A DNA stretch of 64,000 bases, taken from contig OZ024745.1 of the NCBI GenBank assembly GCA_964016885.1, forward strand, positions 76,012,001-76,076,000, written 5' to 3'. Shown here in pieces: positions 5,835 to 59,375 of the stretch (the stretch's first letter is position 1; every line of letters starts with the position of its first letter). The stretch is from Eledone cirrhosa (Eukaryota). The notes under the pieces are model-generated. The model saw only the letters and a program-made list of their open reading frames with translations. It was not told the origin of the DNA and ran no database searches. The translations under genes and the position numbers were made by a program.

Positions 5835-6990
5835 GAGTCATGGGCAAACAGTGACCTATGAGCTGCATGTAACCCTTTTGGCTTTCTGAATGGTACACAA
5901 AATTTCAAAACTGCCTTGAACTTTTTAGTAGTGTGGCCCACCTTATGATGAGCCACATCCTATGTGGCCCACCTTATGATGAGCCACATCCTATGAAGCC
6001 CACCTTATGATGAGCCACATCCTATGTGGCCCACCTTATGATGAGCCACATCCTATGTGGCCCACCTTATGATGAGCCACATCCTATGTGGCCCACCTTA
6101 TGATGAGCCACATCCTATGTGGCCCACCTTATGATGAGCCACATCCTATGTGGCCCACCTTATGATGAGCCACATCCTATGTGGCCCACCTTATGATGAG
6201 CCACATCCTATGTGGCCCACCTTATGATGAGCCACATCCTATGAAGCCCACCTTATGATGAGCCACATCCTATGTGGCCCACCTTATGATGAGCCACATC
6301 CTATGTGGCCCACCTTATGATGAGCCACATCCTATGTGGCCCACCTTATGATGAGCCACATCCTATGTGGCCCACCTTATGATGAGCCACATCCTATGTG
6401 GCCCACCTTATGATGAGCCACATCCTATGTGGCCCACCTTATGATGAGCCACATCCTATGTGGCTCACCTTATGATGAGCCACATCCTATGAAGCCCACC
6501 TTATGATGAGCCACATCCTATGTGGCCCACCTTATGATGAGCCACATCCTATGTGGCCCACCTTATGATGAGCCACATCCTATGTGGCCCACCTTATGAT
6601 GAGCCACATCCTATGTGGCCCACCTTATGATGAGCCACATCCTATGTGGCTCACCTTATGATGAGCCACATCCTATGAAGCCCACCTTATGATGAGCCAC
6701 ATCCTATGTGGCCCACCTTATGATGAGCCACATCCTATGTGGCCCACCTTATGATGAGCCACATCCTATGTGGCCCACCTTATGATGAGCCACATCCTAT
6801 GTGGCTCACCTTATGATGAGCCACATCCTATGAAGCCCACCTTATGATGAGCCATATCCTATGTGGCCCACCTTATGATGAGCCACATCCTATGTGGCCC
6901 ACCTTATGATGAGCCACATCCTATGTGGCCCACCTTATGATGAGCCACATCCTATGTAGCCTACTGCTTAAAAAAGGTTGCCCATGCCTA
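5835..6990. mobile_element. Non-autonomous hAT element (MITE) with an internal minisatellite
   Basis: Imperfect TIRs GAGTCATGGGCAAAC ... GGTTGCCCATGCCTA. Candidate 8-bp TSD ATTTACTA (5827-5834) / GTCTACTA (6991-6998), 6/8 match. Confidence 0.7.
5933..6955. repeat. 31-bp minisatellite, 33 copies (GTGGCCCACCTTATGATGAGCCACATCCTAT)
   Basis: Head-to-tail units with no spacers. Recurrent variant units begin GAAGCCC or GTGGCTC. Confidence 0.97.
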
Positions 6991-29819: not shown

Positions 29820-30630
29820 AAAGATGCACCTAATATATTTTATGTATACATGTAAATTCAAGGGACTCAACAAAATGAAATTAGTTCATATAAGATAGAT
29901 TATGGTTCTTTTTCTTTTTTAATATAGGTGCACATGGCTTAGTGGTTAGAGCATTGGCCTTGCAATCGAAAGGTTGTGAGTTCAATTCTCAGACTGGGTG
30001 ATGTGTTGTTTCCTTGAGCAAGACACTTCATTTCACATTGCTCCAGTTTACTCAGCTGTAGAAATGAGATGATAGGGACTGGGGTCCCTATCATTCCACT
30101 GCAAAATGGTCGTTGAGGTGCCACGGTAAAAAAGCACCCACACTCACTGTAAATGAGGTTGGTGTAGGAAGGGCATCCAGCTGTAGAAATCAAGCCAGCA
30201 TCAGTTTCCGTCTCACCCTTGCAAGCAGGGAAAAAGCGGACGTAAAATGAAATGATGATGATGTGTTTGCAGAAATAGTCATGATTATCCATTTAGTTTT
30301 TGTACTAACCTGTTTTGCTATGAGTGGCTTTTCAAACTTTCATTTTAGTTTGTGCTGGTATTGATTATATTTTATGTATGTTGCTGTATGTTATATCTTT
30401 AAAGCAACACATATAAAATTCATGCAACTCCAGCACAAACTAAAATGAAACTTTGAAAAGCTACTCATAGTAAAACCAGTTAGTACAATAACTAATTAGA
30501 TAATCATGGTTATTTCTGCGAACCCACCTATATTAAAAAAAAAAAAAAATTTATTTTGTATAAACTAATTTCTTTTCATTGCATACTGTCAATTTGCATG
30601 TATTTATAAAAACATTAGGTGTATTTTCAA
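29820..30630. repeat. Old fold-back element (~230-bp arms) whose left arm is split by a SINE
   Basis: 30263-30385 pairs with 30404-30525 and 29820-29930 pairs with 30525-30630. Confidence 0.7.
29927..30263 (+). mobile_element. SINE family 1 (tRNA head, CORE-like body, RTE-derived tail)
   Basis: A box TGGCTTAGTGG, B box GAGTTCAATTCT, CCTTGAGCAAGACACTT core. Tail matches the 3' end of RTE-B, then (GAT)n. Confidence 0.9.
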
Positions 30631-37720: not shown

Positions 37721-37827
37721 ATATATAATATATATATATATGTAGGAGGTGAGTTTTATTGTAGTACAATAAAGCAATGCAGATATCGGATAAGTAGCAC
37801 TCTACAGTTTGTAGGACTGGAGTATAA

Positions 37828-38119
37828 ATAATATAAGATCAAAAGATGGTTAAAAGAGTTCCATGTATTTTATTATGCGCATTTCAAAAACAAATATCAT
37901 CATGAGATGACATTTGCGTTTTCCCAATATCACACATCAATCTTAAATTACTTTTCATATGTTGATTTAAAACTGCACTATTCACAAGTGTTTTTTCATA
38001 TCATGTCTCTCTATTTTATCTGACGAAAACGCAAATGTCATCTCATGATGATATTTGTTTTTGTAATGTGCATAATAAAATACATGGAACTCTTTTAACC
38101 ATCTTTTGATCTTATATTA
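37828..38119. repeat. Fold-back with ~95-bp arms ending in (TA)n
   Basis: 37828-37922 pairs with 38025-38119. A related copy lies at 61441-61570. Confidence 0.8.
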
Positions 38120-38687
38120 TATATATATATATATATATATCACATGAAAATAATAGGTAAATGTGTAAATTTGATTTGAAGAATATATATCTCTGTGAAA
38201 AACATTTTTTAATGCATTAATTCAATCTGATATTATACTCTGCTCTGTAAGAGCATCGAGTGCTCAAACAGCCTACTGCTTACGGACGCTTTAAGCATCC
38301 CACACCAATTATATATATATATATTGACAGTCAATCGACTTTCGTCAAATCGGACTGGGGAAACAATGTTTCCATTGGTCTTTCCAATTGCTAATACTAT
38401 CTATTGGTCGCAACACCAGATAGAAGAAGCAACGTGAAATAAAGTGACTATATATATTTGACAATAGCTTTGACAATATATAAACAACCAATCCGGTTAT
38501 GAAACCAGCTAACCAGCCAGCCGGAAATTTATAATAAATTGAAGTGAAAACCAACATGTTTTTATTGGCAGCATGATTCTCCGAAAGTATAACAATATAT
38601 ATATATATATATATATATTATGAAGAGAGAAGAAACATTTAGATATAATTAGTAATAAAATGTATCATACCTAAACTGCTCCTAGAT

Positions 38688-38777
38688 TCCTCGACTACGT
38701 AGTTTCGTGGCATAAACAAAAACAATACATCATAAAGATATAGAGTCCTTGCGAGGTCTGCCGACTTATCAAGAGGA
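38688..38777 (-). ncRNA. Type-I hammerhead ribozyme with a U3-A8 core variant and GUC cleavage triplet
   Basis: UCCUC-UUGAUAA-[GU(C)GGCA...UGCCAC]-GAAAC-UACGUA-GUC^GAGGA. Confidence 0.75.
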
Positions 38778-39715
38778 TACCTCATTTTACTAGTCTCAAG
38801 AACACGTCTACACGACGTGAGAAAGAATCCCAAAAGGCGGAGGGGGAGATAGTCACGCGATATAACGGTCGAGAAACAGAGCTAAGCCTCTCATAACCCC
38901 GAAGAAAATACCACGGAGGCGGAGGGGGTATTTATATCGAAGCCGTAGAAGAGGTGGTGAAGGAGGCGAGAAGTATGAGTAATGGAAGCTTTCCAGCAGT
39001 CCCCACACCTCAAAGATTGCTCGACCAGAGGGAGTTATTAACAATATATTTAGAAACACACAGATACATGCGGACACACACATATACATGAATGCATCCG
39101 CACCCAACCGTGAGTTAAGGGTGCCAACTTCACCGATGTTGCTCAATGAATGACTGGGACAGACCAATCCGGTTGAACTAGACTGAACCAGTATCAGAGT
39201 TAAAAATACATTATGAAGAGAGAAGAAACATTTAGATATAATTAGTAATAAAATGTATCAAATGTTTCTTCTCTCTTCATAATGTATTTTTAACTCTGAT
39301 ACTGGTTCAGTCTAGTTCAACCGGATTGGTCTGTCCCAGTCATTCATTGAGCAACATCGGTGAAGTTGGCACCCTTAACTCACGGTTGGGTGCGGATGCA
39401 TTCATGTATATGTGTGTGTCCGCATGTATCTGTGTGTTTCTAAATATATTGTTAATAACTCCCTCTGGTCGAGCAATCTTTGAGGTGTGGGGACTGCTGG
39501 AAAGCTTCCATTACTCATACTTCTCGCCCCCTTCACCACCTCTTCTACGGCTTCGATATAAATACCCCCTCCGCCTCCGTGGTATTTTCTTCGGGGTTAT
39601 AAGAGGCTTAGCTCTGTTTCTCGACCGTTATATCGCGTGACTATCTCCCCCTCCGCCTTTTGGGATTCTTTCTCACGTCGTGTAGACGTGTTCTTGAGAC
39701 TAGTAAAATGAGGTA

Positions 39716-39805
39716 TCCTCTTGATAAGTCGGCAGACCTCGCAAGGACTCTATATCTTTATGATGTATTGTTTTTGTTTATGCCACGAAACTACGTAGTT
39801 GAGGA
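39716..39805 (+). ncRNA. Type-I hammerhead ribozyme with a U3-A8 core variant and GUU cleavage triplet
   Basis: Stem I UCCUC/GAGGA; core UUGAUAA and GAAA; stem II with a ~46-nt loop; palindromic stem III ACUACGUAGU. Confidence 0.72.
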
Positions 39806-40033
39806 ATCTAGGAGCAGTTTAGGTATGATACATTTTATTACTAATTATATCTAAATGTTTCTTCTCTCTTCATAATGTATTTTTAACTCTGATACTGGTT
39901 CAGTCTAGTTCAACCGGATTGGTCTGTCCCAGTCATTCATTGAGCAACATCGGTGAAGTTGGCACCCTTAACTCACGGTTGGGTGCGGATGCATTCATGT
40001 ATATGTGTGTGTCCGCATGTATCTGTGTGTTTC

Positions 40034-40075
<42 letters not shown>

Positions 40076-40539: not shown

Positions 40540-41090
40540 GTGTGTTCAATCTTGGTTTGAATTTTCTGATAAATATTTTCTCTTTATTAATTCAACCTTT
40601 TTCTGTGATTTCATAACTACATTGGTACAATGGAAAAACGTTTTATCTTTGCATTCTTCTATATGTTTGCTTAGAAGGATCTTTCTAGAATACGGGATTC
40701 TGATTTGCAGCCTGTGGACTGTCATTCTTTGTCGAAGTGTCAGCCCCTAAAAAATTTTTGTGGCAACCATGGCAGGTTATGACATAAATTAACTTTTCCG
40801 ATTTGAATGAGAAGTGATTTCTAATATTGAAGATTGATCTTACTTTTTAAGTGAAAATCATGGCCTTCCCATTTGTAATTGCATGACTACGGAATCAAAG
40901 CTATTCAATACTGGCTAAATGCATTCTCTCTTGAGCTACCAGACCATATTAACAGAAACTTCATCATAGAAAGTATTGAATTCACCCTAAAAAACAATTA
41001 CTTTTTTGATGACTAACAACCCTAAAACATTCTCAATGGGACACAGATTTTAAAAATGAAAACTATTTTTCTCTAGGATGCACTGTTTTC
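40540..41090 (-). mobile_element. Penelope-like element GIY-YIG endonuclease relic (Cys-containing type)
   Basis: With frameshifts: LIYVITCHGCHK, TLRQRMTVHR.QI, LSKHIEEC, FIRKFKPRLN. Confidence 0.7.
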
Positions 41091-52796: not shown

Positions 52797-53016
<220 letters not shown>

Positions 53017-53144
53017 ATGAATGTATATATAGTGTATTTTGCAATACACTGTATGCTTAATTAATAGCATTTTGAAGACCTTACGCTATTGTTTTAAAGT
53101 AGTCACTATGTCACTTACTTCTTTTTTCAGCAAACAAAGGGAGA

Positions 53145-53192
53145 TAAGCTGACAGATCTCTGTTTCGTACTTTTAGTACTCCTCAGAGCTTA
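53145..53192 (-). ncRNA. Canonical type-I hammerhead ribozyme
   Basis: UAAGCU-CUGAGGA-GUAC UAAAA GUAC-GAAACAGA GA UCUGUC^AGCUUA. Confidence 0.88.
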
Positions 53193-53520
53193 CAACTCCC
53201 TTTGCCTGCTGAAAATTATGAATGTTGGATTCTTATAGAATTCCAGTAATAATCAGGAACTTTAAAATTAAAAGAAGTAAGTGACATAGTTACTACTTTA
53301 AAACAATAGCGTAAGGTCTTCAAAATGCTTTTAATTAAGCATACAGTGTATTGCAAAATACACTATATATACATTCATATAAATATCGCTATTTCAGAGC
53401 ACCAATTCTAATTTTCAACTTTTGCTGGATCGGCAACCGCTCTGTATAATCAGTTCCTGATTATTACTGGAATTCTATAAGAATCCAACATTCATAATTT
53501 TCAGCAGGCAAAGAGAGTAG

Positions 53521-53568
53521 TAAGCTCTGAGGAGTACCAAAAGTACGAAACAGAGATCTGTCAGCTTA
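53521..53568 (+). ncRNA. Canonical type-I hammerhead ribozyme
   Basis: UAAGCU-CUGAGGA-GUAC CAAAA GUAC-GAAACAGA GA UCUGUC^AGCUUA. Stem I extends beyond an internal loop. Confidence 0.88.
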
Positions 53569-53789
53569 TCTCCCTTCGTTTGCTAAAAAAAGAAGTAAGT
53601 GACATAGTCACTACTTTAAAACAATAGCGTAAGGTCTTCAAAATGCTTTTAATTAAGCATCACCCCTTCCATTTGCACAGAATGAAGCATACATCTACTA
53701 TGTGCCACTTTCCCCTCCATCACCCCTTTCATACACCTCCCACGTTGTAACACCCCGCCCCTAGATCTACCACCCCAATCTGCATGCTT

Positions 53790-54370: not shown

Positions 54371-57300
54371 GATTGTACACCTTGACCTCTTTCCTTTTGT
54401 CATTCAGGCCATTGCCATATTTTATCATTGTAAATCTTGACCTCTTTCCTCTTGTCATTCAGGCCATTGCCATATTTTATGATTGTCAACCTTGACCTCT
54501 TTCCTCATGTCATTCAGGCCATTGCCATATTTTATCATTGTAAACCTTGACCTCTTTCCTCTTGTCATTCAGGCCATTGCCATATTTTATCATTGTAAAC
54601 CTTGACCTCTTTCCTCTTGTCATTCAGGCCATTGCCATATTTTATGATTGTAAACCTTGACCTCTTTCCTCATGTCATTCAGGCCATTGCCATATTTTAT
54701 CATTGTAAACCTTGACCTCTTTCCTCTTGTCATTCAGGTCATTGCCATATTTTATCATTGTAAACCTTGATCTCTTTCCTCTTGTCATTCAGGCCATTGC
54801 CATATTTTATGATTGTAAACCTTGACCTCTTTCCTCTTGTCTTTCAGGCCATTGCCATATTTTATCATTGTAAACCTTGACCTCTTTCCTCTTGTCATTC
54901 AGGCCATTGCCATATTTTATCATTGTAAACCTTGACCTCTTTCCTCTTGTCATTCAGGCCATTGCCATATTTTATGATTGTAAACCTTGACCTCTTTCCT
55001 CTTGTCATTCAGGCCATTGCTATATTTTATCATTGTAAACCTTGACCTCTTTCCTCTTGTCATTCAGGCCATTGCCATATTTTATCATTGTAAACCTTGA
55101 CCTCTTTCCTCTTGTCATTCAAGCCATTGCCATATTTTATCATTGTAAACCTTGACCTCTTTCCTCTTGTCATTCAGGCCATTGCCATATTTTATGATTG
55201 TAAACCTTGACCTCTTTCCTCTTGTCATTCAGGCCATTGCCATATTTTATCATTGTAAACCTTGACCTCTTTCCTCTTGTCATTCAGGCCATTGCTATAT
55301 TTTATCATTGTAAACCTTGACCTCTTTCCTCTTGTCATTCAGGCCATTGCTATATTTTATCATTGTAAACCTTGACCTCTTTCCTCTTGTCATTCAGGCC
55401 ATTGCCATATTTTATCATTGTAAACCTTGATTTCTTTCCTCTTGTCATTCAGGCCATTGTCATATTTTATGATTGTAAACCTTGACCTCTTTCCTCTTGT
55501 CATTCAGGCCATTGCCATATTTTATGATTGTAAACCTTGATCTCTTTCCTCTTGTCATTCAGGCCATTGCCATATTTTATCATTGTAAACCTTGACCTCT
55601 TTCCTCTTGTCATTCAGGCCATTGCCATATTTTATGATTGTAAACCTTGACCTCTTTCCTCTTGTCATTCAGGCCATTGCCATATTTTATGATTGTAAAC
55701 CTTGACCTCTTTCCTCTTGTCATTCAGGCCAATGCTATATTTTATCATTGTAAACCTTGACCTCTTTCCTCTTGTCATTCAGGCCATTGCTATATTTTAT
55801 CATTGTAAACCTTGACCTCTTTTCTCTTGTCATTCAGGCCATTGCCATATTTTATCATTGTAAACCTTGATCTCTTTCCTCTTGTCATTCAGGCCATTGT
55901 CATATTTTATGATTGTAAACCTTGACCTCTTTCCTCTTGTCATTCAGGCCATTGCCATATTTTATGATTGTAAACCTTGATCTCTTTCCTCTTGTCATTC
56001 AGGCCATTGCCATATTTTATCATTGTAAACCTTGACCTCTTTCCTCTTGTCATTCAGGCCATTGCCATATTTTATCATTGTAAACCTTGACCTCTTTCCT
56101 CTTGTCATTCAGGCCATTGCCATATTTTATGATTGTAAACCTTGACCTCTTTCCTCTTGTCATTCAGGCCATTGCCGTATTTTATCACTGTAAACCTTGA
56201 CCTCTTTCCTCTTGTCATTCAGGCCATTGCCATATTTTATGATTGTAAACCTTGATCTCTTTCCTCTTGTCATTCAGGCCATTGCCATATTTTATCATTG
56301 TAAACCTTGACCTCTTTCCTCTTGTCATTGAGGCCATTGCCATATTTTATTATTGTAAACCTTGACCTCTTTCCTCTTGTCATTCAGGCCATTGTCATAT
56401 TTTATCATTGTACACATTGACCTCTTTCCTCTTGTCATTCAGGCCATTGCCATATTTTATGATTGTAAACCTTGATCTCTTTCCTCTTGTCATTCAGGCC
56501 ATTGCCATATTTTATCATTGTAAACCTTGACCTCTTTCCTCTTGTCATTCAGGCCATTGCCATATTTTATCATTGTAAACCTTGACCTCTTTCCTCTTGT
56601 CATTCAGGCCATTGCCATATTTTATTATTGTAAACCTTGACCTCTTTCCTCTTGTCATTAAGGCCATTGCCATATTTTATCATTGTACACCTTGACCTCT
56701 TTCCTCTTGTCATTCAGGCCATTGCCATATTTTATGATTGTAAACCTTGACCTCTTTCCTCTTGTCATTCAGGCCATTGCCATATTTTATCATTGTAAAC
56801 CTTGACCTCTTTCCTCTTGTCATTCAGGCCATTGCCATATTTTATCATTGTAAACCTTGACCTCTTTCCTCTTGTCATTCAGGCCATTGCCATATTTTAT
56901 TATTGTAAACCTTGACCTCTTTCCTCTTGTCATTAAGGCCATTGCCATATTTTATCATTGTAAACCTTGACCTCTTTCCTCTTGTCATTCAGGCCATTGC
57001 CATATTTTATCATTGTAAACCTTGATCTCTTTCCTCTTGTCATTCAGGCCATTGCCATATTTTATGATTGTAAACCTTGACCTCTTTCCTCTTGTCATTC
57101 AGGCCATTGCCGTATTTTATCATTGTAAACCTTGACCTCTTTCCTCTTGTCATTCAGGCCATTGCCATATTTTATGATTGTAAACCTTGACCTCTTTCCT
57201 CTTGTCATTCAGGCCATTGCCATATTTTATTATTGTAAACCTTGACCTCTTTCCTCTTGTCATTCAGGCCATTGCCATATTTTATCATTGTACACCTTGA

Positions 57301-59375
57301 CCTCTTTCCTCTTGTCATTCAGGCCATTGCCATATTTTATTATTGTAAACCTTGACCTCTTTCCTCTTGTCATTCAGGCCATTGCCATATTTTATCATTG
57401 TAAACCTTGACCTCTTTCCTCTTGTCATTCAGGCCATTGCCATATTTTATTATTGTAAACCTTGACCTCTTTCCTCTTGTCATTCAGGCCATTGCCATAT
57501 TTTATGATTGTAAACCTTGATCTCTTTCCTCTTGTCATTCAGGCCATTGCCATATTTTATCATTGTAAACCTTGACTCCTTTCCTCTTGTCATTCAGGCC
57601 ATTGCCATATTTTATCATTGTAAACCTTGACCTCTTTCCTCTTGTCATTCAGGCCATTGCCATATTTTATCATTGTAAACCTTGACCTCTTTCCTCTTGT
57701 CATTCAGGCCATTGCCATATTTTATCATTGTAAACCTTGACCTCTTTCCTCTTGTCATTCAGGCCATTGCCATATTTTATTATTGTAAACCTTGACCTCT
57801 TTCCTCTTGTCATTAAGGCCATTGCCATATTTTATGATTGTAAACCTTGATCTCTCTCCTCATGTCATTCAGGCCATTGCCATATTTTATCATTGTAAAC
57901 CTTGACCTCTTTCGTCTTGTCATTCAGGCCATTGCCATATTTTATGATTGTAAACCTTGATCTCTTTCCTCTTGTCATTCAGGCCATTGCCATATTTTAT
58001 CATTGTAAACCTTGACCCTTTTCCTCTTGTCATTCAGGCCATTGCCATATTTTATCATTGTAAACCTTGACCTCTTTCCTCATGTCATTCAGGCCATTGC
58101 CATATTTTATGATTGTAAACCTTGACCTCTTTCCTCTTGTCATTCAGGCCATTGCCATATTTTATCATTGTAAACCTTGACCTCTTTCCTCTTGTCATTC
58201 AGGCCATTGCCATATTTTATCATTGTAAACCTTGACCTCTTTCCTCTTGTCATTCAGGCCATTGCCATATTTTATCATTGTACACCTTGACCTCTTTCCT
58301 CTTGTCATTCAGGCCATTGCCATATTTTATGATTGTAAACCTTGACCTCTTTCCTCTTGTCATTCAGGCCATTGCCATATTTTATCATTGTACACCTTGA
58401 CCTCTTTCCTCTTGTCATTCAGGTCATTGCCATATTTTATCATTGTAAACCTTGACCTCTTTCCTCTTGTCATTCAGGCCATTGCCATATTTTATTATTG
58501 TAAACCTTGATCTCTTTCCTCTTGTCATTCAGGCCATTGCCATATTTTATCATTGTAAACCTTGACCTCTTTCCTCTTGTCATTCAGGCCATTGCCATAT
58601 TTTATCATTGTAAACCGTGACCTCTTTCCTCTTGTCATTCAGGCCATTACCATATTTTATCATTGTAAACCTTGACCTCTTTCCTCTTGTCATTCAGGCC
58701 ATTGCCGTATTTTATCTTTGTAAACCTTGACCTCTTTCCTCTTGTCATTCAGGCCATTGTCATATTTTATCATTGTACACCTTGACCCCTTTCCTCTTGT
58801 CATTCAGGCCATTGCCATATTTTATCATTGTAAACCTTGATCTCTTTCCTCTTGTCATTCAGGCCATTGCCATATTTTATCATTGTAAACCTTGACCCCT
58901 TTCCTCTTGTCATTCAGGCCATTGCCATATTTTATCATTGTAAACCTTGACCTCTTTCCTCTTGTCATACAGGCCATTGCCATATTTTATCATTGTAAAC
59001 CTTGACCTCTTTCCTCTTGTCATTCAGGCCATTGCCATATTTTATGATTGTAAACCTTGACCTCTTTCCTCTTGTCATTCAGGCCATTGCCATATTTTAT
59101 CATTGTAAACCTTGACCTCTTTCCTCTTGTCATTCAGGCCATTGCCATATTTTATCATTGTACACCTTGATCTCTTTCCTCTTGTCATTCAGGCCATTGC
59201 CATATTTTATGATTGTAAACCTTGACCTCTTTCCTCTTGTCATTCAGGCCATTGCCATATTTTATCATTGTACACCTTGATCTCTTTCCTCTTGTCATTC
59301 AGGCCATTGCCATATTTTATGATTGTAAACCTTGATCTCTTTCCTCTTGTCATTCAGGCCATTGCCATATTTTAT
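54371..59375. repeat. 55-bp satellite, about 91 copies (CATTGTAAACCTTGACCTCTTTCCTCTTGTCATTCAGGCCATTGCCATATTTTAT)
   Basis: Uninterrupted head-to-tail array with only substitution variants seen. Confidence 0.98.

Follow-up and report, generated by a model that had tools for sequence, protein, structure and literature searches.

The retrozyme units studied in invertebrates are 170–400 nt long (PMC7229834), and a 2026 preprint (bioRxiv 10.64898/2026.07.22.740005), which connects non-LTR retrozymes to pLTRs, gives family consensus lengths of 51–972 bp. Non-LTR retrozymes have been proposed to multiply as tandem cDNA made by Penelope-like elements on circular templates (PMC7229834). As far as the available portions of these two sources go, the case for Penelope mobilisation of animal retrozymes via circles rests mostly on co-occurrence and on pLTR similarity, and the term "inverted" is absent from the available portion of PMC7229834.

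Penelope-like elements (PLEs) are themselves described as forming inverted copies, often with a 30–40-bp tail at one end only (PMC8557442; PMC2377424), and the building of their tandem and inverted insertions is termed undefined in the accessible part of PMC8557442. In an element from the anole, the tail has an internal start for reverse transcription on each side, with cleavage and extension of both strands and a predicted dimer (PMC11167929). The Neptune and Nematis clades are defined by a reverse transcriptase (RT), a CX2-5CXXC linker and, at the C-terminus, a GIY-YIG endonuclease (PMC8557442); Naiads, in the descriptions available, are without canonical hammerheads (PMC8557442, PMC11167929, PMC2377424). 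A covariation in the hammerhead core, U3·A8 replacing C3·G8, is described in Schistosoma elements (PMC4209133).

We analysed a window of 64,000 nucleotides from Eledone cirrhosa (contig OZ024745.1). At window positions 38617–40042 there are two divergent arms of one 593-nt cycle, flanked on both sides by (TA)n, which masks any target-site duplication; in non-LTR retrozymes such duplications, where they occur, exceed 4 bp. The features are collected in Table 1, where unit position 1 is window position 39801, the first base past the predicted hammerhead cut. Followed in the direction of the hammerhead strand, the left arm runs from 39260 to 38617 (minus) and the right arm from 39260 to 40042 (plus), and the two overlap by a single base, A39260. 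Both arms are longer than one unit (644 and 783 nt), as a first-pass annotation of the window had reported, and the period of 593 is exact across the 190-nt overlap within the right arm. The three substitutions that the annotation had seen between the arms were located at 38964/39529, 38892/39601 and 38693/39800, and there are no others. The third is the base preceding the predicted hammerhead cut: the left arm has GTC, as does the family (147 insertions), and the right arm (39800) has GTT, which is private to this locus.

The longest stop-free frame of the unit has 134 codons, without a start at its head. No PLE protein matched 38617–40042 in tblastn, and a single frame carrying both RT and GIY-YIG endonuclease is absent from the unit and its arrays. 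The 593-nt element is not an autonomous Penelope-like element and, as had been anticipated, it is not fused to a PLE reading frame.

Table 1. Positions of the features of the 593-nt insertion and its target in the 64,000-nt window.
Feature	Position	Strand	Remarks
(TA)n target, left side	38595..38616	.	sequence
Priming site A, unit 76–80	38613..38640	-	CATAAT after a pyrimidine tract, running into (AT)n
Arm A, 644 nt, 1.09 units	38617..39260	-	starts at unit position 26, ends at priming site A
Type I hammerhead motif, U3·A8 core	38688..38777	-	GUC cut predicted between 38693 and 38692
Inversion joint	39234..39260	.	26-nt unpaired loop
Arm B, 783 nt, 1.32 units	39260..40042	+	starts at unit position 53, ends at priming site B
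One complete 593-nt monomer cycle	39260..39852	+	
Type I hammerhead motif, U3·A8 core	39716..39805	+	private GUU at predicted cut 39800/39801
"Tail", ~162 nt from site A to site B	39881..40042	+	only at this insertion end
Priming site B, unit 242–247	40016..40047	+	TTTCTAAATATAT, running into (AT)n
(TA)n target, right side	40043..40071	.	

The left flank (38463–38596) is the end of another repeat family, intact copies of which (L180, L193, L206) carry a CTGAAGA hammerhead-like motif; the 593-nt insertion therefore lies within an older element's (TA)n tail. At 40544–41004, separated from the insertion by (TA)n and about 470 nt, are decayed Penelope-like fragments, namely an endonuclease region that contains stops (minus strand, 40831–40544) and a piece of RT (plus strand, 40882–41004). 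A second hammerhead repeat at 53009–53660 has a canonical CTGAGGA core at 53523 (+) and 53190 (-), a period of about 318 nt and two divergent arms beside (TA)n; a relative of it in L146 is a 310-nt tandem. The window also contains an inverted repeat at 37823–38125 (arms of 101 nt with 97% complementarity, stopping at a run of (TA)n), tRNA-like heads at 29933, 41181, 60908 and 61737, the last two mutually inverted, which are likely to belong to a SINE family, and minisatellites at 54372–59375 (55 nt x 91) and 5932–6961 (31 nt x 33).

Each arm at this locus has one complete hammerhead motif, TCCTC-TTGATAA-GT(C)GGC...GCCAC-GAAA-CTACGTAG-TY^GAGGA, at 39716–39805 (+) and 38777–38688 (-). The core has the rare U3·A8 in place of C3·G8, stem II is long, and helix III is palindromic. 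The single hammerhead per monomer claimed in the first-pass annotation was found, together with its three named hairpins (GCACCC/GGGTGC, AAATACC/GGTATTT and CACGTC/GACGTG) and the duplicated CCCCCTCCGCCT, which lies at 39565 and 39647. Rfam, at gathering and E-value thresholds, gave no hammerhead at the locus, only hairpin-driven miRNA models below the cut-off.

Folded as a circle, the monomer reaches -175.6 kcal/mol (z -5.3 against 40 shuffles) and the opposite strand -126.3; the hammerhead region folded by itself is unremarkable (z -1.4). The hammerhead core is conserved over about 147 insertions. Variants common to at least five insertions occur at none of 41 hammerhead core positions and at 75 of 552 other positions (P=0.003). 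Shared substitutions outside gap-prone stretches break predicted pairs in 12 of 68 cases against 23.3 expected, a count based on the fold of one haplotype and on confidently predicted pairs. Unit positions 112–118, 240–250 and 550–555 were excluded from this pair count and from the counts of rare variants by copy given below, because the mixed sites there are artefacts of gap placement. The conserved core and the spared pairs point to apparent selection on RNA structure.

A search of the 3.0-Gb genome with one unit returned 1869 candidates, and 40 of them were scored. The copies have two endpoints, at which they run into (AT)n: site A and site B, about 80 and 242 nt past the hammerhead cut. 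Exact junctions number at least 567 at site A and at least 967 at site B genome-wide, with 0 for the controls, and they substantiate the proposal of a retrozyme-like multi-copy family. The nearest copies differ by about 0.6%. The family is a young repeat, with roughly a thousand genomic copies, inserted in (TA)n. It includes tandem head-to-tail units with at least two complete hammerheads, and arms of up to about five units. One two-armed insertion is present four times with the same joint and flanks (L006, L007, L008 and L026, on contig C5 at 12.4–13.0 Mb), as segmental duplicates.

Part of what the first-pass annotation expected of these copies needs revision. It had predicted that BLAST of the monomer would recover copies starting at permuted positions, as free circular permutation would give. 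Copies are indeed many, and the 5' ends of arms scatter around the cycle; the permuted starts are confined to 5' ends, however, since the 3' ends are fixed at two sites, one per arm. Its AT-rich microhomology at the 3' ends stands in so far as these ends merge into (AT)n, but such microhomology alone fails to select the sites: (A/G)T runs resembling them at unit positions 197, 217 and 556 are not among the tabulated 3' ends. Nor is the length of the monomer, which it had thought unusual, exceptional within the range of consensus lengths given above. An apparent fixed 5' end 50 nt ahead of the query start was rejected as an artefact of BLAST splitting tandem hits.

The two ends are used in a strict combination. 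We sampled insertions anchored on 3' ends only, taking the loci of 70 of the 98 site-A positions on contig C1 and of 64 of the first 100 site-B positions; two further A sites came from the one-unit search, and four B sites fell in A-anchored loci. After removal of two duplicates, and with six loci re-read over wider stretches, this gave 132 insertions. Two divergent arms are present in 85 of them, and the remaining 47 have a single arm (25 A, 22 B). Among the two-armed insertions 80 are A+B, none is A+A, none is B+B, and 5 have another end; the 80 comprise 79 direct readings and one insertion that first ran off its stretch and proved to be A+B on wider reading. The exact-match coordinates alone give the same picture, all 11 close pairs being divergent A+B (P about 2e-4). 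A set from the one-unit search (24 distinct of 30 loci), which is biased toward long copies, has 8 A+B, 3 other and 13 single. The A+B pairing supports the earlier suggestion that both ends of a (TA)n break served to prime the two arms, and the use of fixed 3' ends, one per arm, is the "tail at one end" signature of Penelope (PMC8557442, PMC11167929).

We next consider whether the two arms belong together. An assembly artefact or single-copy palindrome is an explanation to which we give almost no credence. No contig spans the whole stretch, and no read or contig crossing the inversion joint was found among four contig sets of unknown kind; yet three substitutions separate the arms, there are more than 1500 exact end junctions, and dozens of two-armed loci have differing joints. 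Judging from the arm substitutions and these loci, the locus is not an assembly palindrome. (One of the contigs, X5 contig 20, of 621 nt and from a run labelled as another organism, is a variant of ~590 nt that returns on itself by 589; a circle and a collapsed tandem would account for this equally well, and the contig was left out of the argument. X6 contains pieces too.) It is also very improbable that the arms were separate insertions, were copied from two RNA molecules, or arose by DNA fold-back of the first arm. Separate insertions would be A+A or B+B about half of the time, against 0 of 80 observed. In the 44 insertions with enough overlap, partner arms diverge by 0.0073, against 0.021–0.026 from the arms of other insertions; an arm's own partner is within the closest tenth in 37 of the 44, and private variants are common to partner arms in 13 insertions. 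In 4 of the 44 the partner lies beyond the median, no closer than other copies, as a separate origin would allow. The joints at which both 5' ends lie within 30 nt of each other (7 of 84) might be taken for fold-back, but fold-back copying of one arm predicts matching 5' positions, and 8.6 such joints are expected by chance; it was rejected. A separate origin of the arms is already contradicted at most loci. The joints themselves carry extra bases in 30 of 93 cases; of the other 63, 36 have microhomology of at least 2 nt (15% expected) and 21 of at least 3 nt (5% expected).

The form of the shared template can be judged from the arms that pass through more than one unit. The 84 of 209 arms that are longer than 593 nt support the earlier proposal of rolling past one unit; the longest measures 2907 nt, the longest insertion is about 5.4 kb, and the stopping rate is steady at about 0.4 per 300 nt and does not jump at one unit length. 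The unit junction is free of scars, with 0 inserted bases and no raised error in about 313 passes. Among rare variants at positions held in at least three copies, 19 are in all copies, 8 in some and 49 in one. The 19 span 11 insertions, among them L130 and L135, with rare variants in all 7–8 copies (in L135, in 8 of 8 over both arms). The haplotypes shared by partners and the all-copy variants together suggest that both arms usually come from one template, and the all-copy variants with the scar-free junction suggest that a one-unit template was copied repeatedly at some step. An RT that copied cleaved linear monomers, jumping from a monomer's 5' end to its own 3' end or to that of another, would agree with the slight excess of 5' ends at the cut site (4 of 215 arms, 1.3 expected), which is a weak sign of linear cleaved templates, and with L043, where an arm ending there carries a short duplicated stretch. 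We regard this as improbable, given the clean junction, the continuation of about 98% of passes through the cut site and the mixing of subfamily-diagnostic sites at only 8 of 1129; jumps between different monomer molecules are largely excluded. More serious, though still unlikely, is the same protein with the same two-site priming on a template that was mostly a linear uncleaved multimeric transcript of a tandem copy, with circles rare or an occasional reset of the lineage. The anole element uses mainly unprocessed RNA in vitro (PMC11167929) and the axolotl has linear dimers and trimers (PMC7229834), as far as these sources are available, and a coding element described below appears to copy uncut RNA, its arms passing the cut to about -72. 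The 8 some-copy variants, from six insertions (L003, L004, L100, L131, L132 and L134), are also of the kind expected, and these six look multimer-templated; in L132, two variants are common to in-register units of both arms, and the subset variants of L132, L003, L131 and L134 fit multimeric templates or later exchange between arms. However, 5' truncation of such a template could only shrink arrays, yet arms reach about 2.9 kb; the variants in all 7–8 copies of L130 and L135 require a one-unit bottleneck; and the 593-nt family has no fixed 5' limit. The patterns favour a single monomer circle that was copied from both DNA ends. Counting against this reading are the some-copy variants, the four distant partners and the cut-site ends. 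The all-copy variants could also stem from a linear transcript of an unsampled source array that was rolled one generation before, and gene conversion could homogenise units after insertion.

The genome also contains candidates for the protein. There are 10,596 GIY-YIG candidates, of which 150 were scored and 38 loci read. L191 and seven others, 94–99% alike near the endonuclease, form a family with a unit of 4979 nt (in L191) and a 938-aa frame holding an RT, a CX4CXXC linker and, at the C-terminus, a GIY-YIG; the RT domain match (E 2e-6) is below Pfam's cut-off. By this domain layout the family fits a Neptune/Nematis-type Penelope-like element, and the layout agrees with both clades. It has a U3·A8 hammerhead, and L191 ends in (TA)n at +82, following a pyrimidine tract, and at +150, following TTTCTAATATAT, which is close to the TTTCTAAATATAT of the monomer. 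The exact junctions at these ends number 2964 and 4169. The family has 34 divergent neighbours within the first 70 Mb of C1, of which 33 are A'+B' and one is B'+B'; this count left out 12 non-divergent neighbours, and no pair spacing falls between 357 and 1446 nt. In the short copies (L210–L228, which are 19 of 23 short pairs and were chosen for shortness), no arm extends beyond -73, and 23 of the 38 end between -61 and -73. We read this fixed limit as probably the mark of a linear RNA that was left uncut, begins at a fixed point and was primed close to its 5' end; the 593-nt family, unlike these short arms, has no such limit. To an annotator these short two-armed ends of a coding element would resemble MITEs.

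In BLAST, the monomer showed no extended homology to the L191 unit and, among the matches listed, only simple-repeat matches to the 38 GIY-YIG loci. The monomer and L191 share only the hammerhead core type and short end motifs. A second coding family (L171, L172, L174, L176, L178, L182 and L207) has a TTGATAA (U3·A8) hammerhead-like motif, 3' ends in (TA)n and similar end motifs. With no extended homology to L191 and a second such family present, the partner is not pinned down: Neptune/Nematis is the likely type of the partner, not a proven family.

Taking these observations together, we think it likely, with some reserve, that the element is a retrozyme whose predicted monomer RNA circle is reverse-transcribed from both ends of the break by a Penelope-like protein of Neptune/Nematis type; we infer the circle from patterns in the DNA. 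Tandem copies would be transcribed, and the hammerheads would cut the RNA, probably as dimers formed through the palindromic helix III, after which the cut monomer would be ligated into a circle. A dimeric RT/GIY-YIG protein would bind the circle and cut both strands of (TA)n. Judging from the end pairing and the shared haplotypes, one DNA 3' end would then prime at site A and the other at site B of one RNA. Each RT would displace the cDNA of the other, rolling until it falls off, and the cDNA ends would join through 0–4 nt of microhomology or a few added bases; survival of one arm alone would leave a single-armed copy. The stronger proposition is that the double priming is obligately asymmetric, a dimeric Penelope-type RT holding one circle at two fixed starts with both polymerases rolling, in hundreds of independent events; here we find the arguments for and against evenly balanced.

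A literature search, with supplements, Repbase and Dfam outside its scope, found no strict count of start-site pairing and no such retrozyme anatomy; the 593-nt family may already be catalogued in Repbase or Dfam. The strict pairing count and the evidence for a single template seem new, each ingredient having a precedent. One two-site pairing rule holds in this genome both for a non-coding RNA of 593 nt and for a coding element of 5 kb, and the variant patterns of the small element point to rolling and to one template per insertion. The family is a large natural record of Penelope-type integration, and its compact substrate, two mapped start sites and candidate enzymes make it suited to an in vitro test. 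If true, double priming would bring the partial tandems of Penelope-like elements, their inverted copies and their one-sided tail under one mechanism, and the family would be direct genomic evidence that a Neptune-type protein mobilises an animal ribozyme circle. Genome engineers would also take an interest in a telomerase-related RT able to write multimers of an RNA circle into (TA)n.

In LINE-1 twin priming, both ends of the target break prime on one RNA to give an inversion with a microhomology joint; the position of the second site varies, and the arms derive from separate stretches of a linear RNA. The 593-nt element resembles this in the priming of two break ends on one RNA, in the inversion and in the microhomology at the joint, and differs in having both sites fixed and an overlap of whole units between its arms. 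With the minimal hammerheads of Schistosoma Cercyon (PMC4209133, in its available portion) it shares the core covariation, the palindromic helix III and dual motifs on opposite strands, which in Cercyon lie 100–700 bp apart; Cercyon motifs are mostly single, however, and are taken as truncated PLEs, whereas here there is a tandem non-coding unit under apparent structural selection.

The EN+ Penelope-like clades (Neptune/Nematis, Penelope/Poseidon and Naiad) are similar, in the descriptions available, in their partial tandems, an inverted 5'-truncated copy, the tail at one end, a preference for (TA)n and a hammerhead upstream of two internal RT starts. Unlike them, the present element has no coding frame, a unit of 593 nt and a tail of about 162 nt rather than 30–40, and its arms cross many units without a 5' limit. 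As judged from its sequence, the element has all the features of non-LTR retrozymes that a sequence can reveal. Like those of Metazoa (PMC7229834; bioRxiv 10.64898/2026.07.22.740005), to the extent that these sources describe them, it consists of non-coding tandem units with one type I hammerhead each, has a G+C content below 50% and a highly self-paired predicted circle, and co-occurs with Penelope-like elements. It departs from the studied invertebrate retrozymes in the length of its unit (~590 nt), and from metazoan retrozymes generally, as described in the available part of PMC7229834, in its U3·A8 core with a long stem II and in that about two thirds of the sampled copies are divergent arms in (TA)n with paired fixed 3' ends.
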